Below are positions 8,722 through 48,449 of a DNA stretch of 64,000 bases, one piece after another. This DNA comes from a virus (Duplodnaviria; Caudoviricetes). Location of the stretch: IMG/VR virus record IMGVR_UViG_3300023174_000037; one strand, 5' to 3'. The translations under genes were made by a program, and so were the position numbers. Position 1 is the stretch's first letter. Every line of letters starts with the position of its first letter. The notes beneath the pieces were generated by a model. That model saw nothing but the letters and a program-made list of their open reading frames with translations, was not told the DNA's origin and ran no database searches.

Positions 8722-8817
8722 TTATCTTCGATTGTCAAAAAATATAAAAACTGCGGTCAATGCTAGAGCCAACGGCAAGTTAACAAAAGCCAATATAACT
8801 ACCAATAGCCAATGCAT
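8722..8817 (-). CDS. 31-aa hydrophobic microprotein
   Basis: MHWLLVVILAFVNLPLALALTAVFIFFDNRR; ATG overlaps the ligase stop (TAATG). Confidence 0.5.
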   Translation of the reverse strand: MHWLLVVILAFVNLPLALALTAVFIFFDNRR

Positions 8818-10196
8818 TATAATTTCTCACCGGCTTCAAATCCACGGAATCGAACAAATCGAGGAAATCTCAAACTGTATGATCCGTCTTGGTTTTGCGT
8901 AACTGCGTCAGCTTCAACTTCAATAACATCACCAAGTAACTGATCTCTTGCCAGCCAATACTCATCACGATTAGCATCAGACAAACCGCTACCAACATTA
9001 ACACGTATATTTCGATCATTGTCGACTCCTTCACAAATTATAGCACCCAAGCGGCCAAGATTGCGACCAGTGCCTTCTTCAAAACCAACTATATTGAGAT
9101 CTACTGTTATAGTAGGTTTCCATTTCATCCAAAAAGTGCTACGGCGACACTCGTATGGAGCATCGAGACTCTTGATCATGATACCTTCAAATCCTAAAGC
9201 CACTGCATCCTTGGCATACCGATTCATAATATCATGTCCTTCGGCCATACCCAGGTCTACAGTAATACCATCCATGATACGAACACAGTCAGTTGATTCA
9301 AATACACTACGGTATTCTTCTAGTATAGCCAAACGTTTATGTTGTTGGGCATTCCAAAAACCGCGTTCAAAGTCCACCAGTGGTACAACATCAAACACAC
9401 TGTAGGTCATGCCATCAGTTTTGACATCAGTCTTGCGTTGTGCCTGTTTCATTAGGGCTTGGAAACTCTCACCAATGATCTCGCCATCTAGCACAAATCC
9501 ATGCGGTGCAGATTGAAATAGTTTGGCAAATTTGTTTTTGATATCTTCGATCGCTTCCACAATCTGAGGGAAGTTATCAAACGGTTTACCATTACGGCTG
9601 TATAGATTAACTGTGGTCTTGGTCACAACTGCCAGCACACGCACACCATCTAGCTTTTGCTCAATACGTTTTTGACCAGTCATTTTGGCTGTGTGTTTTT
9701 CGCTGTCGGTGGCCAATTGGCAAGTAAACACAGGAATCTTCCATTCGGTATTGCCCAGCACTTTGTTAAGAGTTTTTTCACTGATGCCGCAACGTAGATC
9801 TTTGATAATAACTCTGCGACATAGGCCATTCCACTCCGCACTGTCAAACTGCTCACTCATAAATTCAATGGCAGTTTTGGCATTGTGCCCAGTAAGACTT
9901 CTAGTGCGTAGACCTTCCAACATGGCCCAGAACTTTGGCCACGGATTAGACTTACCGTCAAGCCCTTTGGTCTCAGGAACTTTTTTTACGCCAAACACAT
10001 AATAGGGGTTGTAGGCCTGAAAGCAGTTGAACAAGAAACATTGAGCATTTGATGACCCTAGCTTACTGGCCATCAATGCTTTTTCAATTACTGATTCTTT
10101 GTGTAAACGGCTGTCGCTTGATTCTAGGTCTCTGATCCAGTCTGCGGCCACTTTGATCTCATTAAATTGATCACTAGAAAAATTTATAGTGTTCAT
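8817..10196 (-). CDS. ATP-dependent DNA ligase
   Basis: EQKLDGVR adenylation motif, VLDGEI, FDVV, EGIMIK, WMKWK and a C-terminal OB fold ending SLRFPRF. Confidence 0.95.
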   Translation of the reverse strand: MNTINFSSDQFNEIKVAADWIRDLESSDSRLHKESVIEKALMASKLGSSNAQCFLFNCFQAYNPYYVFGVKKVPETKGLDGKSNPWPKFWAMLEGLRTRSLTGHNAKTAIEFMSEQFDSAEWNGLCRRVIIKDLRCGISEKTLNKVLGNTEWKIPVFTCQLATDSEKHTAKMTGQKRIEQKLDGVRVLAVVTKTTVNLYSRNGKPFDNFPQIVEAIEDIKNKFAKLFQSAPHGFVLDGEIIGESFQALMKQAQRKTDVKTDGMTYSVFDVVPLVDFERGFWNAQQHKRLAILEEYRSVFESTDCVRIMDGITVDLGMAEGHDIMNRYAKDAVALGFEGIMIKSLDAPYECRRSTFWMKWKPTITVDLNIVGFEEGTGRNLGRLGAIICEGVDNDRNIRVNVGSGLSDANRDEYWLARDQLLGDVIEVEADAVTQNQDGSYSLRFPRFVRFRGFEAGEKL

Positions 10197-25024: not shown

Positions 25025-25927
25025 TTATACGACTGGTTCTAGGGTGTATTGTTTTTTGGCTTGATTTTTGGTAACTGCAAACAACCTATTTTTATATTCT
25101 AAACTTTCTGGGCAAAATTTACACATGGTCAATTGCTCATCGATTGTGGCTAAAAATTCCGCACCACGTTCCGAATACTCGTAAGGCGATAGCGGTCGAT
25201 AGGAATTTAAAATAACTCTATCTTCGTCTGAAATATCAAATCCGTGCTGTTGATCAAACTCTGGAAATAGTGCAGCTGGTCCGCATTTATACAGCCGGCC
25301 TTTGATCATGTGATAGTTTTTATGTATGCGAAATCCGCAACTGTTGTGTGCCACATGAGGTCTACTGTTGTGTAGTGTAAACTTGCCCGTGGCATCTCGT
25401 TGAATAGCACTGTCGTAAAAATCATATTGTATCCACAGTGGTATGGCAACCTTGTTTTCGTCTATCCATGTAATGTCAGACCCAAACAAGTTACGAGGAT
25501 CGTTTTTTTCTAATTTTGTAATTGCACCTTGAAGAAACTTGTGAACTTCAGCTTCAAATTCATCAATGGTATTAGGATTGTGCCAGCTGATACCCATCCA
25601 GTTACCATTGACCCGTAAGGCTTCGTAAAGTCCCTTTACATTGTTTAGGCGTGTGCCGTTTGATAGTATCTGCACATTTCTTTTGAATATGCGATTGATT
25701 CCATAAACCCAATCAAGTATGTCCGGATTCAGCAACGGTTCGCCACCTAATATCACTATCTTGTCAACGTCAACATATTCGGCCCATTTTTCATAATCGG
25801 CTTCGTAGTCACTCCATCGTTGCCATCCAGCAAATGAATAGTTGTTAAAACGGTTACAACCTTCGCAGGTTAGATTGCAGACGTTAGTTATATAGAACTC
25901 AAGTTTTGAGAATAGGTGTTTTTTCAT
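25025..25927 (-). CDS. radical SAM enzyme
   Basis: CNLTCEGC, LGGEPLL; C-terminal Cys cluster (CGF...YKCG...CKFC). Confidence 0.9.
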   Translation of the reverse strand: MKKHLFSKLEFYITNVCNLTCEGCNRFNNYSFAGWQRWSDYEADYEKWAEYVDVDKIVILGGEPLLNPDILDWVYGINRIFKRNVQILSNGTRLNNVKGLYEALRVNGNWMGISWHNPNTIDEFEAEVHKFLQGAITKLEKNDPRNLFGSDITWIDENKVAIPLWIQYDFYDSAIQRDATGKFTLHNSRPHVAHNSCGFRIHKNYHMIKGRLYKCGPAALFPEFDQQHGFDISDEDRVILNSYRPLSPYEYSERGAEFLATIDEQLTMCKFCPESLEYKNRLFAVTKNQAKKQYTLEPVV

Positions 25928-25984: not shown

Positions 25985-26320
25985 TTACTGGCGACGTTTT
26001 AATGCCGCTTTGGCATTGCTGTCTACTACTGCTCTGGCTTGGTCTACACTCATGCCAGTTTCGGCTTCAGTATTGCCTTTGAAACGAACTACACCAGTGT
26101 TGGGTTCCAGTGGTTCTAATATATTACTTAGGGGTTCTTGACTGATCAAATCACCCAGATTTTCAGGAGTAACGTTGACTCCTAGACTTTTGGCCGCATC
26201 AATAAAGGCCTGTTGACTAATTTGTTTTTTGGCACTTTCATCTTCACTACGCCCAAGCAAAAACTGGCTTAATGCAGCCAGTCGTTGTGTGTTGGGATCT
26301 GCAACTTCGCGGATTAACAT
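25985..26320 (-). CDS. hypothetical protein, putative virion component
   Basis: MLIREV N-terminus; late-type box upstream of the operon. Confidence 0.65.
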   Translation of the reverse strand: MLIREVADPNTQRLAALSQFLLGRSEDESAKKQISQQAFIDAAKSLGVNVTPENLGDLISQEPLSNILEPLEPNTGVVRFKGNTEAETGMSVDQARAVVDSNAKAALKRRQ

Positions 26321-27168
26321 TATCTACGTTCGCGACCCAGGCCAGCAGGTTCAACGTTGGCATCCATCTCAGCGTCAATGTCTTCTTCGCCATCAGGTGT
26401 AGGAAGTTCAGCATCAATATCAATTTGTTCTTGACCTGGAGCAACACCCATATCATCACCAGGAACTTGCGGTGCTTGTCCGGTAACTACACCAAGTGCA
26501 GCTTCTAATTGTTGTTTAGCACCGCTTAGGTTTTGTAACAGCCCGCTTAATGCAGCACTGGCATCGCCGTTGAATTGAGTAGCTTGATCAACTCCAACTT
26601 CGTTCTTGATTTGGTCAATCAATGCAGGTAAATCTTTGAATTGCATGGCACTGACTTGTTCACTCATTTTTTGAACTTGATCAACCATGTCTTGTGCAGC
26701 CAACACCACTTGAGCTTGTTGAATTTCAGAGGCTTCACGCAAACGACGAGCGCGGCGGCCTTCTGCCATTGGGTTATTTGCTTGTTGCAAAATTTGATTT
26801 TTTTGTTGTGTTAACTCTTGAATTTGTTTTGTAATTGCAGCGGCTTGATCTTGTGCCTGTTTTTTCCTTGCGGCCATGTCCATTGCCATGTTGGCTGGAT
26901 TTGTTGCCGGAGCAGTACCGGGTGCTGTTGCAGCGGCGGCCAAGGCCTGTTCCATCATGACCAATTTTAAATATGCAGGATCACGTTCACTGCTGTGAAA
27001 AGCTGTGGTTCTACGATGTTCAGCAATTAACTTGCGAACACTCTTAAGCATGTTATGTGCTTGGCTTTTTGAAACAGTGTTAAAATTAACACGGTCACCA
27101 AAATAGCTTTCAAAAACCTTAGCGGCTTGTTGTTTCGGATTGGCTACGGCCAGTTCTTGCAGTTTCAT
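26320..27168 (-). CDS. helical coiled-coil protein, putative virion component
   Basis: 282 aa, Q/A-rich; TAAATA at 27192-27197; SD GAGGA. Confidence 0.7.
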   Translation of the reverse strand: MKLQELAVANPKQQAAKVFESYFGDRVNFNTVSKSQAHNMLKSVRKLIAEHRRTTAFHSSERDPAYLKLVMMEQALAAAATAPGTAPATNPANMAMDMAARKKQAQDQAAAITKQIQELTQQKNQILQQANNPMAEGRRARRLREASEIQQAQVVLAAQDMVDQVQKMSEQVSAMQFKDLPALIDQIKNEVGVDQATQFNGDASAALSGLLQNLSGAKQQLEAALGVVTGQAPQVPGDDMGVAPGQEQIDIDAELPTPDGEEDIDAEMDANVEPAGLGRERR

Positions 27169-27613
27169 TATGGAATCCTCGTTGTTGAATATATTTAGCC
27201 CAGTTTACGTATTTGGTTAACTGATTTTCCAGCACTTTTTTCTGTATAATCTTGCTTTCTAGCTTGGTTAGTATAATTTCACGTAAATCAGGATTTTGGC
27301 TACGATCACCAATGGCAGCTCTTGTATTAATATCATTTTTAAGTGCTGTTAATTTATTATCAGTTCTTAGTATTTCACGGGATGTATTGTAATCACGATT
27401 TTTATCGGCAATGCACCAGCTGAGTGCTGTGCGTGTGCTGCTAAAAACTCCTACTTCTGTAATGCCACAAACGACTTGATAACCACGTGATTTGGGTTGT
27501 ATTTTATAGTGCTCAAATACTTCGTAACCATCCTCACTTTGCCAGATTAAATTGGGTGCAATGCTTTTAAATTCCTGGCGGAACATGCGTTCAAACTCTT
27601 GGTCGGATTTCAT
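27119..27613 (-). CDS. hypothetical protein
   Basis: 164 aa; 50-nt 3' overlap with the next gene. Confidence 0.65.
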   Translation of the reverse strand: MKSDQEFERMFRQEFKSIAPNLIWQSEDGYEVFEHYKIQPKSRGYQVVCGITEVGVFSSTRTALSWCIADKNRDYNTSREILRTDNKLTALKNDINTRAAIGDRSQNPDLREIILTKLESKIIQKKVLENQLTKYVNWAKYIQQRGFHNETARTGRSQSETTSR

Positions 27614-27873
27614 TTTAAAACGTAGTGTGATATAAGATAAATGGTTGAAGCAAATAAAAATCCAATAATGCCAACTCCCCAGCCAATTAATCTATCAGTA
27701 TTTTTTTCACTCATTTTGCTTACACTGGCTTTGACCTCAGCAACCATTTCGCAGAGATGTGCAATATTCACACTCATAGCGGTCATTTTATCTTCTAACG
27801 CATTGTAGCGTTCAGCACACAATTCCACGTGTGCTTCAAGACTTTTCTTTTCAATATCAGTTGGCTCAACCAT
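27610..27873 (-). CDS. coiled-coil protein with a C-terminal TM helix
   Basis: Heptad region then WGVGIIGFLFASTIYLI; TAAATA at 27891-27896. Confidence 0.65.
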   Translation of the reverse strand: MVEPTDIEKKSLEAHVELCAERYNALEDKMTAMSVNIAHLCEMVAEVKASVSKMSEKNTDRLIGWGVGIIGFLFASTIYLISHYVLK

Positions 27874-27885
27874 TTGTAATCTCCA

Positions 27886-28314
27886 TCATGTATTTATGGA
27901 AATAGGCACGAACCAAATATTCTGTCTAGGGCCGCTGGTTATTAACACTGTGTCAATATCCGGGTCATTGTCAAGTTCACGCAACATGGGCACACCTTCA
28001 GCATCAGCACGTAGCACTGATACTGGATCTGATTCAGGACCGTAAATGCCGTCTGTTTCGGTTTCAAATTCAAACATCCAACGTGTGCCGGTTTGATCTG
28101 ATATGGGATCGGTTAGGTCAAATAATTGAGTGCGAAGACTTAAAATTTGTGTAAGTGTTTCCCAATTACGTTGTTGATTGCGACTACGATTCCACAGCTC
28201 TTCATTGTGTATCAACTGTCCAGCACGATCATGAAATGGCATGCGGCTTTGTTTACAATGTCCAGTTACTCCGGTGGCTGTGATATCAAACAGGGTTTGA
28301 CAAGCAAATTTCAT
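27886..28314 (-). CDS. hypothetical protein
   Basis: 142-aa ORF, coupled to the upstream gene. Confidence 0.7.
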   Translation of the reverse strand: MKFACQTLFDITATGVTGHCKQSRMPFHDRAGQLIHNEELWNRSRNQQRNWETLTQILSLRTQLFDLTDPISDQTGTRWMFEFETETDGIYGPESDPVSVLRADAEGVPMLRELDNDPDIDTVLITSGPRQNIWFVPISINT

Positions 28315-28565
28315 TCGGCTTTCCTGCTTAATTCGTAAAGTATTTCTACTTGTTCACACAAATGATTAAGCTCGCTATTGTCTCTGCGAGCTTGAAAAAT
28401 TTCTACCCAACGTTTTGAACTTTCCAAGTCTTTGAGCTCTTGTTGTAAGTTAGGATCTTGCCAATGCAGTTCTCTTTTGGTAGCACCGGGGCTACGAGCA
28501 TAGACTGTGCGACCACCGTCTGGACTTTCAAATACTGTAAGCTCTGTAATTTTGCTGACCATCAT
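28311..28565 (-). CDS. hypothetical protein
   Basis: VFESPDGGRTVYAR motif; TAAATA at 28573-28578. Confidence 0.7.
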   Translation of the reverse strand: MMVSKITELTVFESPDGGRTVYARSPGATKRELHWQDPNLQQELKDLESSKRWVEIFQARRDNSELNHLCEQVEILYELSRKAE

Positions 28566-28611
28566 GATAGAGTATTTAAGTTATTATTGCAAGACCAGTA
28601 TTAAAGTCAAC

Positions 28612-28635
28612 AAAAAGCACCCGAAGGTGCTTTTT
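28612..28635. terminator. Rho-independent terminator, bidirectional
   Basis: AAAAAGCACC-CGAA-GGTGCTTTTT; UUCG loop on the minus strand. Confidence 0.85.
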
Positions 28636-28637
28636 AA

Positions 28638-28865
28638 TTACGCCTGGTCTACAAACTTCTTGAGTTCCTCGGCCTTGCTTACAATATCCGTGCTAGACGG
28701 AAAATCAGGTAAGGTTGGATAAGGCAGTGTTCCGCGATTGGCGTCATTTAGTTTTGAATGATATTCATCACTCATTGCTTGACGTTTTTGGAAGATTGGC
28801 GTTACGAGGATTTCGTTAGCCATTTTAAGAAGTTCGAGACGGATCTCGTAAGGTGTTTTGCTCAT
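28638..28865 (-). CDS. small hypothetical phage protein
   Basis: MSKTPYEIRLELLKMA...KAEELKKFVD; SD AGGAGA; own leader and terminator. Confidence 0.75.
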   Translation of the reverse strand: MSKTPYEIRLELLKMANEILVTPIFQKRQAMSDEYHSKLNDANRGTLPYPTLPDFPSSTDIVSKAEELKKFVDQA

Positions 28866-28965
28866 GTTATTCTCCTGTGTAATGTGTGTGTTATCAAGTC
28901 CCGCCCTATGCAGGACAAGATTGCTACACGAGCAAGATTACTTATACTTGTAAAATCCGGTCAAT

Positions 28966-28988
28966 AAAAAACCCGCCGAAGCGGGTTT
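28966..28988 (-). terminator. Rho-independent terminator
   Basis: Minus strand AAACCCGC-TTCG-GCGGGT-TTTTT. Confidence 0.85.
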
Positions 28989-29007
28989 GATATAATCAAA
29001 AAATTGA

Positions 29008-29388
29008 TTAGGTTGACAATTTGAAACCAGCGTTTGTGCATGAGTTCAACTGGTAACCAGTGGCTACAATGTTCGCAGCAGCCAAGAATGTTGTGGCATC
29101 ATAGGCACCTACTGGAAACACACCAAAACTCAATACTGTGCCATCAATTTGATACATAGCAACTGTGCTTGTTTGTTGAATTGCTTGAATAACGTTAGAC
29201 ACGTATTCGTTTACACCTTGTTGTGATACAACTGTGGTGTTAGCAACTACACGGAAAAAGTCCAATTTTGGACCAGCAAAGTTAACAGGTTGTCCTGCTG
29301 TAGATGCTGATGGGCTAACTGGGCCATTCAATACGTCTGTTGCAAATACTGGTTGGGCATCACCCGAACTAATAGTAATATAAGCCAT
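29008..29388 (-). CDS. putative abundant virion structural protein
   Basis: 126 aa; TATAAATA at 29430-29437, SD AAGGAGA and a downstream terminator. Confidence 0.7.
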   Translation of the reverse strand: MAYITISSGDAQPVFATDVLNGPVSPSASTAGQPVNFAGPKLDFFRVVANTTVVSQQGVNEYVSNVIQAIQQTSTVAMYQIDGTVLSFGVFPVGAYDATTFLAAANIVATGYQLNSCTNAGFKLST

Positions 29389-29451: not shown

Positions 29452-31383
29452 TTAGGAGTTAGGCACTGATTCTGGGTTGTTTATTTGACGATTTGCCGCG
29501 GTAAATCCACCAGCAAGACGATTCACAGCCTTGGCCATACCGGCTCCTGTGGCCATTACCCAACCCTCTTGTCCAGGATGTTGTAGATCCAACTGATTTA
29601 AAATATCCATCTTGATGTCGTGTAGTAATCCCCATGCAGTAAATGCTGCGGCCATACCGGCTAAGTTACTACGTGGACTTTGCAAATATTCTACAATGTT
29701 TTTAAACTTCTTGGGTGTAACACGTTGTTGTAACCACGGACCAAAATCAGCCAACAAGTTATCAAATCCGGTGCCAACTCTACTGTTGATATAATCTATA
29801 CATAGCTTGGGCAAGTCAGTAATTTGTAGCGCACGAAGTTCAGCAGGATTAAACAATTGATCAATCGCAGCACCTTGACTGCTGTAAACTGTTCTAAGTT
29901 GTTGTGTTAATTCTTTGTTCGGGCGCACATTTTCTTTGGCATACACTGGCTCTAATAATAGCAATCCAGGAACTGTTTTAAATTTAACGTTGCCAATGGG
30001 CTCTTTGGCAGCGCCAGGTTCGGCATATCTGGTGTGCATGGCAATGCCAACTTCACTATCACCAATACGCTTGCCCACATCACTGTTGGCTGGAATTTTG
30101 TATTCTATGGTGTTGGGTGTAAACACATAATTGCCGGCCTGTAATGGCGGAGTGTCCATATACAACAAATCGCCTTGCACAAAGCCTCTATAGTTTGTTG
30201 GCACTGCGGCATCTAACATGCTCCATAGTCGATTGTATATTGGTGCAAGATCTTGAACTCGAGTAGCAGGTTTGCCCAACGCAGCTGCATCAGCATCTCT
30301 AGCGGCCAGATGTTGTGTAACTTGCTTAGGACTTGTAAACAAGCCATTGTAGCCTTTGGCTGTGAATCCCGACACGTCGGTCAGTATAAATGTTCCATTA
30401 GCATCACGGCCAAATATTAAGGCTGGCTTACCATCCCACTTGACTGTGGTAGTTTTACCAGTGTCAGCCGCAGTCTGCTTGACAATGTCCATGGCTTTTT
30501 TAATACCCGAACTGCCATTGCGGAACACATAGTCTTCCAAGTGCTCGATGCCTTTGGCACGGCCACCTTGCACTTCAGCTTCAACAATTACCTGCATGCC
30601 TTGATTGACAATACGGTCACGTAGTCGTGCCAGGAAGTTTACTTCTGTATATCCAGTAACTGGAGGAAGCTCTGTGCTTTCCATAAATGGCAAGCCTTCA
30701 CGTTCCATGTGCGCTCGAAAGTCTGCTAATTTAGCATCACGACCTGGATCTGTGCTGAGGGATTGCAGTATGCTTTCAACTGACGCCAGGTCTTGCCGTG
30801 TGGCTGTTTTGTTCAACAACATCTTGGCCACAGCATCTGGATCATCAGTGATAATCTCATTGGTGTTACGATCGGCAATGCCGGCAATTTGATTCAATTT
30901 ATATCCCATACTTTTGGCTATGCTGTTCATTAACACATTACGTTCACGTCCTTTATACTTGGACTCAGCTGGCACAGCACCTAAAACAAATTTTGACCAT
31001 GGTACATTTTTCAACAACATAAAGTCTGTTTGAACATATCCCTTGGCAGGATTGCCAACGATGGGTGTAAGAAAATGCACCGCTGTGCCAGACTTTTTAA
31101 CATAGTCTTCGGGTTTGAATCCGTGACTAGCAGCCCACTGTTTAAGTCTGGCTTCCAATTGTTCTTTGGTAACTGTATTGGCATCTACTGCAATGTCCAA
31201 GTCACCCGACGTGTCTTTGATGCCAGTTGATCCTAATGTATTACTTTGTAAATCTAATCCAGGCAACAGTTCCTCCAACCAGGCCAAAGTAGGCTTAACA
31301 TCAGTCTGATTAATACGCTGAGTTACGGCCTGGCCTTTGCTGTTTTTGAATACGTTACCGCCTTCTCGTAAAGATTGTATCAT
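29452..31383 (-). CDS. Pol-beta-like nucleotidyltransferase fused to a ligase-like (DUF6267-like) domain
   Basis: N-terminal LGSTGIKDTSGDLDIAVD; C-terminal IEHLED, TVKWDGKPALIFG, VQGDLLY, FTPNTIEY. Confidence 0.7.
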   Translation of the reverse strand: MIQSLREGGNVFKNSKGQAVTQRINQTDVKPTLAWLEELLPGLDLQSNTLGSTGIKDTSGDLDIAVDANTVTKEQLEARLKQWAASHGFKPEDYVKKSGTAVHFLTPIVGNPAKGYVQTDFMLLKNVPWSKFVLGAVPAESKYKGRERNVLMNSIAKSMGYKLNQIAGIADRNTNEIITDDPDAVAKMLLNKTATRQDLASVESILQSLSTDPGRDAKLADFRAHMEREGLPFMESTELPPVTGYTEVNFLARLRDRIVNQGMQVIVEAEVQGGRAKGIEHLEDYVFRNGSSGIKKAMDIVKQTAADTGKTTTVKWDGKPALIFGRDANGTFILTDVSGFTAKGYNGLFTSPKQVTQHLAARDADAAALGKPATRVQDLAPIYNRLWSMLDAAVPTNYRGFVQGDLLYMDTPPLQAGNYVFTPNTIEYKIPANSDVGKRIGDSEVGIAMHTRYAEPGAAKEPIGNVKFKTVPGLLLLEPVYAKENVRPNKELTQQLRTVYSSQGAAIDQLFNPAELRALQITDLPKLCIDYINSRVGTGFDNLLADFGPWLQQRVTPKKFKNIVEYLQSPRSNLAGMAAAFTAWGLLHDIKMDILNQLDLQHPGQEGWVMATGAGMAKAVNRLAGGFTAANRQINNPESVPNS

Positions 31384-32813
31384 GGTAATCCTAATGTTGT
31401 TTTAATGTCGTATGCGCCAGTGGGATCTTTGGCCATGTCCTTAAGAGCATCGATTTGTTTAGGATTCAGTACCGCTGATAACGGAGTAACTGATGCGGTT
31501 TGACGCTGCTTGGGATTGTTTTGCTGTTGTATAGACTTTTGCTTGGCAGACAGTTGTTGCATGGCCTGTCCTACAGTTAAAAAATATTGTTCTACTGCTG
31601 CTATGTTGTCATTGGGATTTTGTTGCGTTGTTACAATCTGACTCAAGGCTTGATTCAGTGTGCGACTCATGCCGGGAATTTTTTCCACATCAGCAAGACC
31701 AAGTCCAGACGATTTATCAGCAACTTTTGATGCCGCCCAGGTTTTAAAGTTTTGAGCATATCTACTTTGTAGCGGAGGAGGTGCCTTGATTCCTGCTGGT
31801 TTGGCTGTTACCGAAGGAGACACTGCTCCACCTACAGCAGGCTTGGCACCAGGCAGATCTGAAAATGCTTCATTGGTTACACCACGCTGTTTGGCATCAG
31901 CGGCTGCTATTTGTTGTTGTAGTTTTGCATATTCATCTGCGGTCGGTTTACCTGCAACTGGTTTACTAATTTTAGTTGTGGGTGTTAACCATTTTGGTGC
32001 TGGCTTGGTCGCTGTAGTTGTTGCTGGAGCGGCTACAGATGTTGTCTTTGGATTGGCCGCGTGGAATTGACCAGTTGGCATTTGTGTTATGGTTCCACCG
32101 GTGCTTGATTTAGACTTGTTGGCACCGCTCAACTGTTGAGCCATTTGTCCAAATGCATTTTGACCAGGTGCAACTGCACCTTGGGCACGAGCTGTGCGTT
32201 TACGTATGGCATTAGGAGTTTGACTGACTACGCCAGGTTGTTTTCCACCAGTGCGTGGTTTTGCTACCGCTGGTGTTGTATTAACAGGTGCTGGTGTTGT
32301 TGGGTTTGCCGCTACTGTTGGTGGTGCAGTAGTTGGTTGTGGTGATCCTGTAGCGGCCATAGGATTTGGAACACCAGCTGGTGCGTTGGTTTTTACATTC
32401 TTGTATGCAGGACCGTAACCGGGTTTTGTTGCTTGTGGCGTTACCGGAGTTGTTGGGGTGGCAACTGGCGCTGTTGCAGGTTTAGTAGTTGCTGACGGTT
32501 GTGCCTGTGCTACTGGTGTTTGTGACGACGGTCTAGGTTGACGTGACCATTCGCTGGCTAAATTTTTTGCCCAGGCTGTCAAGTCCGTTGTGGTCGATGC
32601 AGCTTTTTCAGACTGACGCGGGCCTACCAGACTGGTATAGTATTTGTCTCTGGCATTGTTGTATGCACCTGTGCTGGTCAACGAGCCAGGTTCCTTCATA
32701 AGGTATTTGGCTTTTTCAATCGGTGCTTTGACAGCATTTTTAAGATCCGACCCTACGGTTTTGAGCATGGTGCCCAGACCTTCTTGTATCAGTGTTATTT
32801 CATGAATTTGCAT
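31380..32813 (-). CDS. Pro/Thr/Ala/Gln-rich low-complexity protein
   Basis: 477 aa; N-terminus MQIHEITLIQEG. Confidence 0.65.
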   Translation of the reverse strand: MQIHEITLIQEGLGTMLKTVGSDLKNAVKAPIEKAKYLMKEPGSLTSTGAYNNARDKYYTSLVGPRQSEKAASTTTDLTAWAKNLASEWSRQPRPSSQTPVAQAQPSATTKPATAPVATPTTPVTPQATKPGYGPAYKNVKTNAPAGVPNPMAATGSPQPTTAPPTVAANPTTPAPVNTTPAVAKPRTGGKQPGVVSQTPNAIRKRTARAQGAVAPGQNAFGQMAQQLSGANKSKSSTGGTITQMPTGQFHAANPKTTSVAAPATTTATKPAPKWLTPTTKISKPVAGKPTADEYAKLQQQIAAADAKQRGVTNEAFSDLPGAKPAVGGAVSPSVTAKPAGIKAPPPLQSRYAQNFKTWAASKVADKSSGLGLADVEKIPGMSRTLNQALSQIVTTQQNPNDNIAAVEQYFLTVGQAMQQLSAKQKSIQQQNNPKQRQTASVTPLSAVLNPKQIDALKDMAKDPTGAYDIKTTLGLP

Positions 32814-33072: not shown

Positions 33073-34200
33073 TTACCAGAATTTAGAATAAAGGTCTACT
33101 AATTCTGGAAATACTTTTTCAAAAGATTCGTTTCTTAAGGCATCAAATTTCTTTATTTCTGCCAGCATAGCTTGTATTGCAACAGGATTTTCTTTCCAAT
33201 TTGTCGGTATCAGTTCATGCTGATCAGTTTGTTTAATTAATTTTACATATTCTGCCGACATGTTTTGTAGACTAAAATCTCCAAAAGCCAAGTGTTTAGT
33301 GTGGTTAACAATGTCTCCTTCTCTATTTGTTGTAAAATTTGATTCAATCCATGTTTTAAGTTCGGTTGAGTATAATAGATTAAAAATGTTGACTGTTTCT
33401 TCTATAACAAACATTACATTTCCGGGTAAAGTTTTTCGTAAATTTAATACATTATCGACCACCTGATCCCATTTTGCTGGCCACCGTTGATATTCAAATC
33501 TATCACCTACTCCATCTAAACTTATATGTAACTTCACTAGGTGAAATTTTTCAATAATATCAAAGTTTTTAGGAAGTATTGGTTGAGTTCCATTGGTTTG
33601 AAAACACAGGGTTAATTGTTGTTTGGCATTAGGAACATTATTGCCTAGCCATTCTGCTACATCCCAATATTCTTGACCCAGTAATGTTTCGCCGCCACAA
33701 AATACCAATTGCCGTAAATTAGAAAGATCAAGTTTGGATAAAGATTCAATAACTTTGTGTTTTTTTCGTGGCGTTGTTACGGGTTGATCCCATAATCCAT
33801 GTTCTTTAAGATGTCGTTGCCAATAGGTGCTGTTATGAGTTCCGCAAATTCTACAGGCCAAATTACAACTAATATCAAACATGAGATCAATGCGTGACGG
33901 TCCTGTTGTATCATATTGTCCAAAAATATTTAGGCCTTCATTCATTCCAGTTCTAAAACTGACCTCATTTGAGGATTCTAATCTTTCACAATTTGAACAA
34001 CCAGAGTCCCATATATTTTTTTTATTGGTTTCTCTAAGTGTTTGTAATTTTTTATTCCGCCAAAAATTATGATCAATTTCCACAGGAAAAACATCATTAC
34101 GCAAACAACAATGTCTTATTATAGCTTGATTGTCAACATTGGTTGCCTTGAAATCAATATTCAACCCGCCATGTATCATTGAACAATAAAGATTGGTCAT
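33073..34200 (-). CDS. radical SAM enzyme with an N-terminal twitch/SPASM-like domain
   Basis: YC...HCC...CSNC, then CNLACRIC and GGETLL. Confidence 0.88.
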   Translation of the reverse strand: MTNLYCSMIHGGLNIDFKATNVDNQAIIRHCCLRNDVFPVEIDHNFWRNKKLQTLRETNKKNIWDSGCSNCERLESSNEVSFRTGMNEGLNIFGQYDTTGPSRIDLMFDISCNLACRICGTHNSTYWQRHLKEHGLWDQPVTTPRKKHKVIESLSKLDLSNLRQLVFCGGETLLGQEYWDVAEWLGNNVPNAKQQLTLCFQTNGTQPILPKNFDIIEKFHLVKLHISLDGVGDRFEYQRWPAKWDQVVDNVLNLRKTLPGNVMFVIEETVNIFNLLYSTELKTWIESNFTTNREGDIVNHTKHLAFGDFSLQNMSAEYVKLIKQTDQHELIPTNWKENPVAIQAMLAEIKKFDALRNESFEKVFPELVDLYSKFW

Positions 34201-35600
34201 GATTGTTTAATTTGTCCCAGTAGCTGTTTTAGTTTGGCACTTTGCACATCAGCAGTGACTTTGCTGATTTCTCCGGTATCAGCATCAACCGTTTCTTTAC
34301 TGACCATTGTGCTTTTTGCTTTGATGCTGTCAAGTAAATTACCCTTGGCAAAAGAATTAACTGGGCCAGCATCTTCGCCTGGGTCGGTGATACGCATGGT
34401 TTCAATGTTGTAGTCCAAATCAATCTTCATGCCTACACCCGTACTACTACGACTCTTCATACATTGAATTTGATACTTGCCACGTTCTTTCATGGCACGG
34501 CTGGTAAAGATACCAAACACGTTGTCAGCCGTATTAATTTTAGAGATACCACCTGAAATATGACTGTGATCAAATTCAATTTCTTCCACAGCCGATCGAT
34601 TCAACTGCGAAGCGGTTACAAACAACACATTGAGTTCTTTGGCCAAGTTACGCAATTCCTCTGAAACATACTTGTCCTTAACAAACAAATCGTTTGGGCT
34701 AACTTTGGCGCTAACCGGCATCAACAAGTCCAAGTAATCACACATGACAAAATCTATCTTGATACCTGTTTGCACTTGCACTTCTTTGATGTAACTACGG
34801 ATATCGTTGATGTTGCTTTGTGCTGGCAGGGCCTTGATACGATACTGTCCAGTTTTCTTTGAAACCAACTTAACTTTGAGTGTTGCTTGGTCAATGTCCT
34901 TGCGGATCTCCTTGGTGCTCATTCCGGCCAGCATGGCATCAGTTCTTAGGGCACACAGTTCTTCACTAAGTTCTAAACTGATATACACACCACTGAGTCC
35001 AGCCTGTAGCCAACTCAATGCTATGTTCATCATAACAAGACTTTTACCCGAACCAGATCCGCCGGCAAAGATATTGAGTTCTCCACGACTGAATCCACCA
35101 TACAAGATCTTGTCCATCTGTGGCCAACCTGTGCTTACTTGTCCGCCCGAGTTGAAGTATTTGTTAATGCGAGCACTAGGATCACTAAAGTAATCCGTAC
35201 CCATGTCTTTAGTAAGTGATATTTGTACCGCATCTTTGATTAATTTCTCTACAGGGTCATACTCGCCTTTTTCTAACAGGTCTGCACTCTTTAGAATTGC
35301 TCGTTCTAATTCTTGCCTACGAGTAAAGCCTTCAAACTCATCCATGAACCACTCAAAGTGTCCTTCGTTTAAGTCTGGAATGACATTGAGTTTAACGCCG
35401 GTGCTGGCACTGATCTGTTCTACAGTAGGCAGTGTCTTGTGTTGGTCGCTATGTTCAGCAATAAACTTGGCTGCGGGCCTCAAACTTCTATCAAAGTTTT
35501 CTGGGTTGTAAATGTTTTGAACGCGAACATAACTTTCTGCGTCTTGCAACATCATTTCTAAGAATAAGCGTTGGACATCAAGTCCGTAATCTTTTAACAA
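34197..35600 (-). CDS. replicative DnaB-like helicase (gp41-like)
   Basis: AGGSGSGKS, SLELSEE, CDYLDL, TASQLNR, KSRSSTG. Confidence 0.93.
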   Translation of the reverse strand: MLKDYGLDVQRLFLEMMLQDAESYVRVQNIYNPENFDRSLRPAAKFIAEHSDQHKTLPTVEQISASTGVKLNVIPDLNEGHFEWFMDEFEGFTRRQELERAILKSADLLEKGEYDPVEKLIKDAVQISLTKDMGTDYFSDPSARINKYFNSGGQVSTGWPQMDKILYGGFSRGELNIFAGGSGSGKSLVMMNIALSWLQAGLSGVYISLELSEELCALRTDAMLAGMSTKEIRKDIDQATLKVKLVSKKTGQYRIKALPAQSNINDIRSYIKEVQVQTGIKIDFVMCDYLDLLMPVSAKVSPNDLFVKDKYVSEELRNLAKELNVLFVTASQLNRSAVEEIEFDHSHISGGISKINTADNVFGIFTSRAMKERGKYQIQCMKSRSSTGVGMKIDLDYNIETMRITDPGEDAGPVNSFAKGNLLDSIKAKSTMVSKETVDADTGEISKVTADVQSAKLKQLLGQIKQS

Positions 35601-36540
35601 GTTGTTTTTTCCTTAGTTCTATTTTAATTTTACTGGTTTCCTTGGCCTGCATAATAGTTATCAATGCGGCCAATCTACCCAAACGAATTACAGCGTCATT
35701 TACATCCTTGACACCTTTTGGCCACTCGGGCATACTAACTGCCCAACCTAGTTCTACAGCACGATCTACCAGTTTCATTCCAGCTTCGTCTTGATCCGGA
35801 ACAACAATAACGTCACGTCCTAGACTGCGTATTAATCTCGCCTGTGCATCATTAATCTCTGCGTGTAACACAGCCAGTCCATTGATACTGAGTGCGTCAA
35901 ACACACCTTCTACTACAATTGCTGATTGCCAGTTGGACTTTTGCAAATCTGTACCAAACACATATCCTGGTTGTATGTCTTGAATATATCTAGGAGTACG
36001 ATCGTCAAAAAAACGTGTAGTGTGTCCGACCACTTGATTATTGTGTGTAAACGGAATTACAACACCGCGACGCGGCATTGTTTTATACAAGAATGGATAG
36101 TCTAGTGGAACACATCTCTTTTGTAAATATTCTTTAGCAAGTTCATTCAATGGTTGTGTGTCGGCTGGTAAGTCTCGATCTTCAAATTCAATTGACTGCA
36201 ATTTTTGTATTATGTCTTGACGCTCGCCGAGCAAGCCTTCGATGCTCTTATGTTTTAAACTTTCAAGATTGATACGCTCAATTTCTTCTTGTGGCACATT
36301 CATCCACTCTAATAGTCGACGAGCTTTGAATGTTAGATTACGTCCCAATACAAAACTGGCAGTATATCCACAATTAAAACAGTGATAACTCCAAGAACCA
36401 TCTGCTGTGGGTTTGATCCCACCACGCGATCTTTTGTCCTGTGTGTCACCGCGATGAATGCAACAGGGTGCGTTGAAACTTATCCAACCCGAAGCTGTTT
36501 GTTTTCTTTTAATCGGAAGAAAAGAAATCACATCAATCAT
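35578..36540 (-). CDS. DNA primase (gp61-like)
   Basis: Zinc finger PCC...CFNC; TOPRIM VVEGVFDA and PDQDEAG. Confidence 0.88.
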   Translation of the reverse strand: MIDVISFLPIKRKQTASGWISFNAPCCIHRGDTQDKRSRGGIKPTADGSWSYHCFNCGYTASFVLGRNLTFKARRLLEWMNVPQEEIERINLESLKHKSIEGLLGERQDIIQKLQSIEFEDRDLPADTQPLNELAKEYLQKRCVPLDYPFLYKTMPRRGVVIPFTHNNQVVGHTTRFFDDRTPRYIQDIQPGYVFGTDLQKSNWQSAIVVEGVFDALSINGLAVLHAEINDAQARLIRSLGRDVIVVPDQDEAGMKLVDRAVELGWAVSMPEWPKGVKDVNDAVIRLGRLAALITIMQAKETSKIKIELRKKQLVKRLRT

Positions 36541-43986: not shown

Positions 43987-44748
43987 TTACTTACGTTCAA
44001 TATCTTCTTCGACGCAATTATTACCGTATTGTATTTCTACAATTTTTAACGGATGATCAGTTTCATTACATAACTGATGCCATTCATTACAATTGATATG
44101 TATATGAGTGTGCGGACCAAATTTGCCCAATAACTCTGCATCACTTTTTCTATTTATACCATAAACTGTAGCTGTGCCTTCGGCAACGTGCCAGTGTTCA
44201 GCGCGATCTTGATGACGTTGCATACTAAGTTGTTGGCCTGGCAATACTGTAAGTTCTTTAACTTTGGTGCCAGGCACATCATGCAATACTCGATAATATC
44301 CCCACGGGCGTTCAGTTTTAGGTGATTTCCATTCTTCTAAAATCCAACTACTGCTATTGGCTTTATTAAACCCACCAACGCCGAAAGCAAATTGCAAGTT
44401 GTTGTCATCGACGTCCATTTCTGGAATATTTGCTTGTGTGCGGTCGCCACCATTGGCAAAGATAATTTTATCATTAGGATAATGTGCTCGAACTTGCTGT
44501 AGCAAATGGCAAGCGGTTCCATCGTCATCGTCAAACGTATACACTTCGTCCACCGAGGACAAATTGTTTAGGACACACAGGCGTTCATTCCAGGGCATAA
44601 ATGCACGGCCTTTTTTACGGGCCAGCCACTCATCGCTATTGATGCCTACGATTAACAGGTCGCCCAACAAGCGGGCTTCTTTTATCATCCGGATATGGCC
44701 AGAATGTATTGGGTCAAACCCACCGCTTACTACCACTATTTTTTTCAT
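43987..44748 (-). CDS. cytidylyltransferase (HIGH-type) fused to a mannose-6-phosphate isomerase-like cupin
   Basis: SGGFDPIHSGH...GINSD...KKG; C-terminal RPWGYY...LSMQRHQDRAEHW; TATAAATA at 44754-44761. Confidence 0.88.
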   Translation of the reverse strand: MKKIVVVSGGFDPIHSGHIRMIKEARLLGDLLIVGINSDEWLARKKGRAFMPWNERLCVLNNLSSVDEVYTFDDDDGTACHLLQQVRAHYPNDKIIFANGGDRTQANIPEMDVDDNNLQFAFGVGGFNKANSSSWILEEWKSPKTERPWGYYRVLHDVPGTKVKELTVLPGQQLSMQRHQDRAEHWHVAEGTATVYGINRKSDAELLGKFGPHTHIHINCNEWHQLCNETDHPLKIVEIQYGNNCVEEDIERK

Positions 44749-47294: not shown

Positions 47295-48449
47295 TTACTT
47301 TCCTTCTTTAAGTTTGTATAATTCTGTAAAAATTTTACTGCTGTCTACTCCGCGCCTCTGATCCATTACGGCTAATTGTTCAAAAGAATTTGACAAATTC
47401 TTTTCAATTGGTTGTCTTATGTAGTGTAACATATTTCGATAACTATCTTCAAGTAGATATCCTGGATTCTCGTTGATTTTTGATTCCAATTTTAACTTTA
47501 ACAAGTGTAACACATTTTCTGGTAAATTCCTAATGTTTAGGTAATCAGGAGTTAGTAGTGCTCCGATGATAAAACTATTATTATGAAATCCTAGGCCTTT
47601 AAGGTAATCCACATACCCAAATACACTATTGTAATTTAACAAAAACCATAACATATTAAAACTTATCTTATGATCAAGTTGTCTAATTGTGTTCAAATTA
47701 TCTAAAAAATCCTGCCATCGGCCTCCAAAGCGTATGTATTCAAATTCATCTTCTATGGTTTCTGCACTCACAGTCCAGTGAACATTTTTAAAACTGCATA
47801 CAGCATCAAACACTCCGGTATCGACTTTGCTAAGATTAGTGTTTATCCTGAGATTAACATCGGGATTTAATTCTTTGAGTAGTTCTAAATTTTCCTTCAT
47901 CAACAATGGTTCACCGCCGGCTAGATACACATGCTTAAGATTTTTAGCGTGTCGGTAAAGATATTCTCTAAAATCTTTCTGTTGTTGTTCTGTTGGTGTC
48001 GCCCTAATAACATTTAATTCGCTGGCCCACTTACTACTGAAATCTGGGCCACAATAAACACAGGCAAAATTACACAAATTGGTCCATCGTACATCAATGG
48101 TTTGTAAATCAAAATTGTTAGGTCGGTAAGTATCCAGTGGTGTTTTTTTAAATTCTCTTATATAAAAAATTCTATCACTGATAATATCAAAACCTTCTTT
48201 ACCGTGTTCTAGATTGTAACAAGTGTGACAGCCGGCAGCTGGTTGATTATTAATTATATTAGTTTGTTTAGTGACATTAACAGGTCCTAACAGTATTTCT
48301 TCAATGGTGTTGTCTTTGATATTACCCAATCCACCAGTTGTAAAATCACTACGAATACAATTTTTTACTTTGCCATCAAAGTTATACATTAGTCCTGTCC
48401 ACGGCATAGGACAAAAATGTTTATTTGTTAGAATATCTTTTGGATTCAT
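47295..48449 (-). CDS. radical SAM enzyme with an N-terminal twitch/SPASM-like domain
   Basis: FCPMPW...NC...CHTC, then CNFACVYC and GGEPLL. Confidence 0.9.
   Translation of the reverse strand: MNPKDILTNKHFCPMPWTGLMYNFDGKVKNCIRSDFTTGGLGNIKDNTIEEILLGPVNVTKQTNIINNQPAAGCHTCYNLEHGKEGFDIISDRIFYIREFKKTPLDTYRPNNFDLQTIDVRWTNLCNFACVYCGPDFSSKWASELNVIRATPTEQQQKDFREYLYRHAKNLKHVYLAGGEPLLMKENLELLKELNPDVNLRINTNLSKVDTGVFDAVCSFKNVHWTVSAETIEDEFEYIRFGGRWQDFLDNLNTIRQLDHKISFNMLWFLLNYNSVFGYVDYLKGLGFHNNSFIIGALLTPDYLNIRNLPENVLHLLKLKLESKINENPGYLLEDSYRNMLHYIRQPIEKNLSNSFEQLAVMDQRRGVDSSKIFTELYKLKEGK

Follow-up and report, generated by a model that had tools for sequence, protein, structure and literature searches.

A giant-phage protein that appears to join a minimal family-X polymerase to a divergent, OB-less ligase-type domain

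Introduction

PgVPolX of Phaeocystis globosa virus 16T is a family-X DNA polymerase (PolX) fused to an NAD+-dependent DNA ligase; it completes base-excision repair in vitro, with gap filling and nick sealing acting in concert (PMC5537341). Pol X of African swine fever virus (ASFV) has been described as the only known PolX without the 8-kDa and fingers subdomains (PMC5537341). Here, we analyse a protein with likenesses to both. It is encoded by a single open reading frame (ORF) of 643 amino acids (aa) in 64,000 nucleotides of viral DNA (IMG/VR virus record IMGVR_UViG_3300023174_000037; Duplodnaviria, Caudoviricetes), the whole of which is called the window below. The ORF lies on the minus strand, spans exactly 29452..31383 and encodes a PolX-like domain, a linker and a DUF6267 domain.

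The polymerase of LigD inserts ribonucleotides. Rnl5-type ligases seal 3'-ribo nicks, and DraRnl is linked to radiation resistance (PMC5397189). For the T4-like phages of cyanobacteria, a review of 2010 pointed out the lack of gp30 in cyanomyoviruses and the possibility of distant homologues, at that time unidentified (PMC2984593). We consider the protein described here to be best explained as a bifunctional enzyme that fills and seals ends, of DNA more likely than of RNA, and that is probably loaded into the capsid. We infer its activities, substrate and cofactor, and we give this explanation about an even chance.

Results

Fold of the N-terminal half

A sequence-only reading of this DNA had proposed a Pol-beta nucleotidyltransferase (NTase) fused to a KxDG ligase-like domain. 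The coordinates it gave are those of the ORF, and the strings it quoted, GSTGIKDTSGDLD (G51-D63), QTDF (D120), TVKWDG (K315), QGDLLY (D405) and PFMES (residues 232-236), are all present in the protein, which starts MIQSLREGG. With E <= 0.001 as the limit, an exhaustive representative search returned 1,474 representatives of 50%-identity clusters, and conservation was assessed in 88 diverse N-domain homologues and 80 C-domain homologues.

The AlphaFold model of the N-terminal half is confident (pLDDT 93.8, pTM 0.87). When it was compared with the PDB by Foldseek, the top 50 matches were all family-X polymerases, among them Thermus PolX, Pol lambda and Pol beta, with E-values from 5e-5 and a probability of 1.0. 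With VIA-align, residues 13-203 superposed on residues 140-335 of Pol beta, which comprise the palm and thumb (Z 10.6, root-mean-square deviation (rmsd) 3.1, ~162 residues). The VIA wide search of 48,161 PDB representatives, which is independent of Foldseek, placed PolX enzymes in all of the top nine positions with ~150-180 residues aligned, among them ASFV Pol X with a Z of 9.0 and an rmsd of 3.2 over 152 of 176 residues. TUTases, GLD-2, CD-NTases, OAS, PAP and CCA enzymes matched the palm of ~88 residues only (residues ~25-133), with Z of 5-7.3. The presence of the thumb thus sets the N-terminal half apart from tailing and messenger-making NTases. As modelled, this half is a minimal family-X polymerase consisting of palm and thumb, which would add nucleotides in a templated manner. 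The domain begins at the palm, at about residue 8, and the 8-kDa (5'-phosphate binding/dRP lyase) and fingers (HhH) subdomains are absent. Since ASFV Pol X has been called the sole reduced PolX, the phage family would add a second lineage, and a far larger one.

At the sequence level, the sole Pfam match of the N-terminal half was a weak one to DNA_pol_B_thumb (residues 149-178, E 0.06, 13.6 bits against a cut-off of 25). Neither DNA_pol_B_palm nor thumb was matched above the cut-off, and the profile of this half matched no PDB sequence. The RlaP model of Pfam did not match residues 1-270 even at E <= 10, nor did any NTase family except the PolX thumb. The residues expected for catalysis are conserved in the alignment of 88 homologues: D63 is invariant, and G51, G54, S59, G60, D61, H103, V117, Q118 and D120 are at least 90% conserved, so that the DxD motif pointed out in the sequence-only reading is kept across the family. 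The Pol-beta assignment of that reading stood at the level of the superfamily and is narrowed here to a minimal family-X polymerase, neither generic nor of CD-NTase/OAS type. Its nucleotide-messenger enzyme is disfavoured by the palm and thumb, because family-X identity favours templated gap filling over messenger synthesis. An identity as CD-NTase or messenger synthase was rejected on fold, given that CD-NTase and OAS enzymes matched the palm only and with lower Z. The Pol-beta NTases of polyvalent proteins (PMC5512222) were also considered as kin and set aside as a different, minimal type.

Fold of the C-terminal half

DUF6267, which the sequence-only reading had named as a resemblance, is the only family that Pfam finds in the protein. 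Residues 279-631 match PF19782 with 102.7 bits, where the cut-off is 27 (E 3.5e-29), from model position 4 to 371 of 376; phrog_455, whose function is unassigned, matches as well. Searches of the PDB by phmmer and by profile, and an NCBIfam scan, gave nothing relevant for the protein, and a literature search for DUF6267 found nothing.

The model of the C-terminal half is confident (pLDDT 92.7). Of the 48,161 chains in the VIA wide search, the 28 best all belonged to the covalent nucleotidyltransferase superfamily, with Z of about 5.0-7.5 and 142-200 residues aligned. NgrRnl (Rnl5) led with a Z of 7.5, REL1, Trl1, T4 Rnl2 and T4 Rnl1 gave 7.0, 6.7, 6.5 and 6.2, many DNA ligases lay at 5.4-6.3, and the vaccinia capping enzyme stood at rank 28 (Z 5.1). 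The LigA adenylation domain ranked 50th with a Z of 4.3. Foldseek against PDB and Swiss-Prot put DNA or RNA ligases in almost all of its top rows, none of them significant (best E 0.012). Because the Foldseek E-values are not significant and the Z values are modest, the fold call is based on VIA-align and on the uniformity of its list of matches. The ligase fold suggested in the sequence-only reading was thereby recovered, at remote range, by structure prediction and fold searches. Taken together, the modelled fold and the motifs make the C-terminal half a probable, remote member of the lysine-nucleotidyl ligase/capping superfamily.

Candidate motifs follow one another as KWDG (I), GDLLY at 404-408 (III), FxPN with Y428 (IIIa), EGWV (IV) and KAVNR (V), assigned by pattern and strand order; candidate motif V reads KxVxR, not KxK. 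Thirteen residues, E283, D284, K315, D317, G318, Y428, G437, H450, K591, E606, G607, V609 and R622, are invariant in the 80 C-domain homologues, and D405 (78/80) and K618 (79/80) are nearly so. Cyanophage MED4-213 and pelagiphage HTVC008M have the motifs KWDG, GDLL[YF], EG[YW]V and KxVxR in their DUF6267 proteins as well. An OB domain with motif VI is absent, as the protein stops ~20 residues past motif V; RNA ligases likewise lack the OB domain. Motifs IV and V are preceded by a helical insert of ~110 residues (helices 229-340 in model numbering). The short cyanophage DUF6267 proteins are ~300 aa long against ~400 aa in MED4-213, that is, ~100 aa less, and the stretch they lack is probably most of the helical insert. 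These short forms occur in many cyanomyoviruses (for example PSSM4_154 of P-SSM4, L098, and RW010709_174 of S-RIM2, L100), where they are always followed by a gene annotated 'cytidylyltransferase'.

Linkage of the two halves and a recurrent partner

Metagenomes contain >3,800 full-length homologues of the fusion. The N-C order is found in 57 of the 150 best cluster representatives and the reverse C-N order in six, while the C-terminal half stands alone in 48 and the N-terminal half in 39. Where the halves are separate genes, these adjoin and overlap (loci L008 and L009). The IMG/VR loci at 53-96% identity are fused in 77 of 80 cases, the other three being cut by contig ends. The two halves are functionally linked, being fused in both orders or encoded by adjacent genes.

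A third partner recurs, namely an NMNAT/PPAT-like adenylyltransferase with a HIGH motif (PGxFKPPHxGH ... SATxxR). In the PDB it matches the MJ0541 NMNAT best (E 3.5e-11), and it falls below the NCBIfam family cut-offs. This partner is fused in ~30 of 67 extra segments, its gene directly follows DUF6267 in MED4-213, P-SSM4, S-CAM4 and S-RIM2, and in HTVC008M it is close by. The protein analysed here has no NMNAT-like domain, and the 64-kb window holds no copy. One HIGH-motif match in the window (43987..44748, minus strand) was rejected as the partner; it is a cytidylyltransferase with a C-terminal mannose-6-phosphate isomerase/cupin domain, of sugar-nucleotide type. Rarer fusion partners are NT5C/HAD phosphatase, DUF5661, Amidoligase_2 and ART-PolyVal. 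In HTVC008M (L003:5706-8155), DUF6267 is followed downstream by a Zeta-toxin/AAA_33 P-loop kinase and by a 596-aa protein that combines an NMNAT-like domain with DUF5824; this kinase region could be an end-healing or nucleotide-kinase companion.

Possible virion association

Phage Atu_ph07 encodes a stand-alone homologue of the N-terminal half, AUZ94877.1 (pairwise E 5e-16, profile E 2.9e-31), whose gene lies just beyond the primase/helicase of that phage. Given that its computed mass of 32.16 kDa and the masses of five neighbours match those of gp63-gp69 to two decimals (Table S5, PMC6102473), the homologue is gp65, for which 10 unique peptides (36.8% coverage) were detected in virions (PMC6102473 Table S5). 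D120 is also kept in gp65.

(L/I)xE is the cleavage rule of T4-type prohead proteases (T4 gp21). The start of the polymerase-like domain, [LI]xE-GGN[VI]FK, is strongly conserved, and its first part fits this rule: in the 88-sequence alignment, position 5 is L or I in 81, E7 is present in 83, and G8 and G9 in 84-86. The leader MIQSLRE is modelled at a pLDDT of only ~62, and judging from the motif, cleavage after [LI]xE may occur there. The first residues of Atu_ph07 gp65, MGGRAF, coincide exactly with the predicted mature end. By eye, a second (L/I)xE precedes the C-terminal half in 10 of 12 diverse homologues. The sequence PFMES is not conserved among them; the linker (residues 231-275) has low pLDDT and is variable, and its MES, which the sequence-only reading had pointed out, is kept only among close (>80% identical) relatives and was rejected as a conserved cleavage site. 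Between the two domains, the helix FLARLRDRIVNQGM (residues ~249-264, 30592..30639, minus strand) is kept in ~40-60% identical homologues; it lies outside both structure models, having been cut off from each. A complete 344-kb relative encodes a Peptidase_S77, the T4-type prohead protease. The idea of packaging in the sequence-only reading therefore finds indirect backing in the virion proteome of Atu_ph07, the conserved [LI]xE-GG start and the protease of a relative; for the present protein it is extended by analogy, and we regard its presence in the virion as about evenly balanced.

The gene of Atu_ph07 gp66 (AUZ94878.1, L001:2046-3020) lies directly upstream of gp65 and overlaps it, and its product begins ...LLEKLDGSFIKIGRDKKG. 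This start resembles the motif I region of DUF6267 (KWDGxPAxIFGRDxxG), and hhalign aligned just that stretch (E 0.049). Judging from this resemblance, gp66 may be a further diverged ligase-like partner. It is missing from the virion table.

Genomic context

The features discussed are listed in Table 1. An identical protein is encoded on a 513-kb contig, and DNA of the window was found in lake and freshwater sequencing runs from several studies; none of the RNA runs contains the gene. The source is an uncultured, T4-related giant phage from fresh water. Many genes of the window lie on the same strand, including those for the large terminase subunit, ribonucleotide reductase, UvsX, a helicase, a primase, DnaB and several radical-SAM proteins. 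The phage has a conventional ligase besides the DUF6267 domain, since a canonical ATP-dependent DNA ligase is also encoded in the window.

Table 1. Features of the gene and of its surroundings (window coordinates; residue numbers refer to the protein).
Feature	Coordinates	Strand	Remarks
Whole ORF P0001	29452..31383	-	643 aa: PolX-like domain, linker, DUF6267 domain
Residues 1-7 MIQSLRE, short leader	31363..31383	-	Closes in [LI]-x-E immediately before conserved GGN[VI]FK
Residues 8-230, predicted minimal family-X polymerase-like domain	30694..31362	-	Palm and thumb, then short helical tail
G51-S52 ... S59-G60-D61-L-D63	31195..31233	-	Triphosphate- and metal-binding motif of Pol-beta palm
D120 (VQTDF)	31024..31026	-	Third catalytic Asp
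Residues 231-275, variable linker (PFMES...) then conserved helix FLARLRDRIVNQGM	30559..30693	-	Helix closes in (L/I)xE (IVE)
Residues 276-643, DUF6267	29455..30558	-	Divergent covalent nucleotidyltransferase (ligase-type) domain without OB domain, as modelled
K315-W-D317-G318	30430..30441	-	Motif I; predicted nucleotidyl-accepting lysine
G404-D405-L-L-Y408	30160..30174	-	Motif III-like strand, by pattern and strand position only
Residues ~490-601, helical insertion	29581..29916	-	Between first half of NTase fold and motifs IV/V; holds invariant K591
E606-G607-W-V609	29557..29568	-	Motif IV-like (EG[YW]V)
K618-A-V-N-R622	29518..29532	-	Motif V-like strand (KxVxR)
Canonical ATP-dependent DNA ligase	8817..10196	-	phrog_114, E 1e-90
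Primase	35578..36540	-	Upstream of the gene, same strand
DnaB-like helicase	34197..35600	-	Upstream of the gene, same strand
477-aa Pro/Thr/Ala-rich ORF	31380..32813	-	Stop overlaps start of the gene (ATGA); no family match
Small-ORF block (126, 84, 142, 87, 164, 282 aa)	26320..29388	-	Follows the gene in nearly all 80 related loci
Terminator-like hairpin AAACCCGC-TTCG-GCGGGTTT and T run	28969..28988	-	After ORF 29008..29388; consensus scan only, weak

On the minus strand, the gene order is primase, DnaB, radical SAM, an 82-aa ORF, the 477-aa ORF, the gene itself and a 126-aa ORF. This order is conserved in 80 IMG/VR loci and around a 38%-identical homologue on a 344-kb contig, with the radical-SAM gene and the 477-aa ORF present only in some. 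As the 477-aa ORF occurs in only 4 of the 80 related loci, it is a variable insert between conserved neighbours. In the small-ORF block, the 282-aa ORF matches a virion-structural PHROG (E 4e-18) and the others are without assignment. The late-type region described in the sequence-only reading is thus half right, as the gene has this block on one side and the primase-DnaB block on the other. The consensus scan found no site comparable to the terminator-like hairpin between DnaB and the gene, and a promoter scan, with 16 sites where shuffled sequence gave 18.4, did not rise above background.

In other loci, Mre11/Rad50-like genes lie directly upstream of a homologue (L095), terminase and portal genes adjoin some homologues, and RecA/UvsX and gp41 occur near homologues, in the case of UvsX and gp41 in cyanophages and a pelagiphage. 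Among the neighbours with a family assignment, none was recognised as an RNA-repair or tRNA gene, and the neighbours of DUF6267 in cyanophages are not homologous to those in the window. The radical-SAM/SPASM load of the window is unusual (25025..25927, 33073..34200, 47295..48449 and others), and within the same 64 kb there are NifU, Fe-S assembly, ClpX/ClpS, Hsp20, Bax1-I, dCMP deaminase and non-specific endonuclease genes.

Discussion

The sequence-only reading had proposed a two-step processing of nucleic-acid ends. Two distinct nucleotidyl-transfer domains with intact catalytic residues are indeed present, and together with the ligase-type fold of the C-terminal half they make a polymerising or tailing step followed by ligation the natural reading, the activities being those predicted from sequence and models. 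In the enzyme that we envisage, the PolX half would extend the 3'-OH of a gap or break by one or a few nucleotides, with D61, D63 and D120 serving two-metal catalysis. The DUF6267 half would take AMP onto K315, pass it to a 5'-phosphate and seal the nick, and the helical insert may take over from the absent OB or DNA-binding domain. The flexible linker would keep the product of one half and the substrate of the other together. The polymerase may insert ribonucleotides, which an RNA-ligase-like sealer would prefer, as in LigD and Rnl5. The substrate would be the phage's own DNA, with nicks, gaps or breaks that stem from host nucleases, replication or recombination; DNA is favoured by the thumb, the gene contexts and the precedent of PgVPolX. 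The protein would probably be loaded into the capsid and delivered with the genome, possibly after being cut at the [LI]xE sites.

Several observations weigh against this explanation. The match to the ligase fold is remote (Z <=7.5, Foldseek E > 0.01), no profile match to PDB ligases was found, and hhalign of the DUF6267 profile against the canonical ligase of the window found nothing. Considering that this phage encodes a canonical DNA ligase, sealing of DNA by DUF6267 would be redundant. The absence of the OB domain and the best structural matches (Rnl5, REL1, Trl1 and Rnl2) are features of RNA ligases, and the 8-kDa and fingers subdomains, which position other PolX enzymes on gaps, are missing. 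As for packaging, the Atu_ph07 virions were purified with polyethylene glycol only, and a few replication proteins appear at low coverage in the same proteome (PMC6102473). Atu_ph07 gp65 has no leader, and [LI]xEGGNVFK is kept when the domain is internal, so that it may be structural rather than a cut site. In addition, it is not obvious what the recurrent NMNAT-like partner would do in DNA repair.

The features shared with RNA ligases would also suit a role in RNA repair, in which the NTase restores nucleotides of a cleaved tRNA or other RNA and the ligase-like domain reseals it, countering host anticodon nucleases as a fused analogue of RlaP and an RNA ligase. The C-terminal half has no OB domain, and NgrRnl (7.5), REL1 (7.0), Trl1 (6.7) and Rnl2 (6.5) head its matches. 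Some homologues are fused to HAD/NT5C phosphatase domains, the Zeta/AAA_33 P-loop kinase of HTVC008M lies two genes downstream and resembles part of an end-healing set, and the idea that Pol-beta NTases work with RNA ligases in jumbo phages has already been published (RlaP; PMC7824862). RNA repair, which the sequence-only reading had put forward, stays a live explanation, but it is not the best fit and we consider it unlikely. The N-terminal half has the PolX thumb, which reads the nascent base pair, whereas RNA-tailing NTases have none, and the RlaP model of Pfam fails to match it at E <= 10. The neighbourhoods consist of DNA replication, recombination or virion genes, without RNA-repair or tRNA genes among the assigned neighbours, and the RNA and DNA ligase matches differ by less than ~1.5 Z, which is close to a tie. 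The location of the gene just downstream of, and on the same strand as, primase and DnaB, with no terminator-like site before 28988..28969, raises instead the reading of a replication enzyme that is neither packaged nor devoted to repair and that fills and seals lagging-strand fragments after primer removal, co-expressed with primase and DnaB. The conserved synteny with these two genes speaks for it, as does the presence of DUF6267 in the gp41/UvsX cluster of cyanomyoviruses that have neither gp30 nor the other ligase families tested (PMC2984593). This role seems improbable to us, however, in view of the canonical DNA ligase of this phage, the association of the N-terminal homologue with Atu_ph07 virions and the terminase and portal genes beside other homologues; cyanophages, moreover, carry the ligase-like half only, so that the fusion is not needed for such a task.

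The NMNAT-like adenylyltransferase, found in ~30 of the 67 extra segments and as the adjacent gene in cyanophages, could also point away from nucleic acids altogether. Together with this partner, the protein would serve counter-defence either by synthesising or regenerating a nucleotide cofactor or signal, one related to NAD for instance, or by nucleotidylating a protein; the occasional fusions to ART-PolyVal, Amidoligase_2 and NT5C would be in keeping with it. We hold this to be very unlikely, since the PolX palm and thumb and the ligase fold belong to enzymes of nucleic-acid ends in every characterised case, CD-NTase and OAS enzymes match the palm only and with lower Z, and the protein itself carries no adenylyltransferase domain.

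Beyond this phage, DUF6267 bears on the ligase question of the cyanophages. It is present in 471 cultured-phage records, almost all of cyanomyoviruses. In MED4-213, HTVC008M, P-SSM4, S-CAM4 and S-RIM2 we found no match to the ATP-ligase, NAD-ligase or Rnl2 families, and DUF6267 is the only ligase-fold gene found in these five T4-like cyanophage and pelagiphage genomes. A search of the cyanophages with PF09511 (Rnl1) was empty, and because the control search was empty everywhere this result is uninformative. Lying in the gp41/UvsX cluster, DUF6267 is a concrete candidate for the ligase of cyanomyoviruses. More speculatively, it would be a new class of OB-less polynucleotide ligases and would fill the place of the 'missing' DNA ligase in T4-like cyanophages and pelagiphages, with the NMNAT-like partner perhaps supplying NAD+ or another adenylate donor. 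In giant phages it would then be fused with a second lineage of minimal PolX as a capsid-packed kit that mends the genome on entry. We offer this wider proposal tentatively and think that it may well prove wrong. If our reading is right, a very abundant, phage-only family would gain a function, ASFV Pol X would no longer be the sole minimal PolX, and the question of 2010, how Okazaki fragments are sealed in cyanomyoviruses without a gp30 homologue, would become testable. Host nucleases that attack DNA entering the cell would be met by a new kind of counter-measure, a polymerase-ligase delivered by the virion. Small OB-less ligases and minimal polymerases also have practical appeal as reagents.

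Fusions of PolX with a ligase are already known, and so are viral repair enzymes that are packaged. What would be new is the second minimal-PolX lineage, the uncharacterised family of OB-less ligases, the occurrence of both domain orders and the phage-borne, very abundant nature of the system. The ligase-type half is closest to the OB-less RNA ligases (NgrRnl and DraRnl of Rnl5, Rnl2 and REL1), with Z of 6.5-7.5 over 170-180 aligned residues, the KxDG lysine and an EGxV-type motif IV. It differs from them in having no similarity at the sequence level, an insert of ~110 residues, an invariant HxED helix before motif I and KxVxR in place of KxK. In the pairing of RlaP with an RNA ligase, too, an NTase of the Pol-beta superfamily restores nucleotides before a ligase seals. 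The N-terminal half of the phage protein falls outside the RlaP Pfam model, however, and has the PolX thumb, and its partner ligase is not Rnl1, Rnl2 or RtcB. Bacterial LigD is likewise a polymerase-ligase fusion for break repair whose domain order varies between lineages, but its polymerase is of the archaeo-eukaryotic primase type rather than a PolX, it has a canonical, OB-containing ligase, a phosphoesterase is part of the same protein, and it works with Ku.

Among viral systems, ASFV Pol X (O174L) shares the minimal PolX architecture without 8-kDa and fingers subdomains and works with a viral ligase in repair. In ASFV, however, the polymerase and a canonical ATP-dependent DNA ligase are separate proteins, and the sequence identity of Pol X to the phage domain is ~16%. 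PgVPolX has the same plan as the phage protein, a single polypeptide with a family-X polymerase N-terminal to a ligase, encoded by a large double-stranded DNA virus. Whereas PgVPolX contains a full Pol-beta core with the 8-kDa dRP-lyase, the phage protein has palm and thumb only. The ligase of PgVPolX is of the canonical LigA type with motifs I-VI, whereas DUF6267 has no OB domain, carries a helical insert and shows no detectable sequence similarity to LigA or ATP ligases. The phage fusion, unlike PgVPolX, also occurs in the reverse order. The fusion of PolX with DUF6267 in phages therefore looks independent of, and convergent with, that in PgVPolX.

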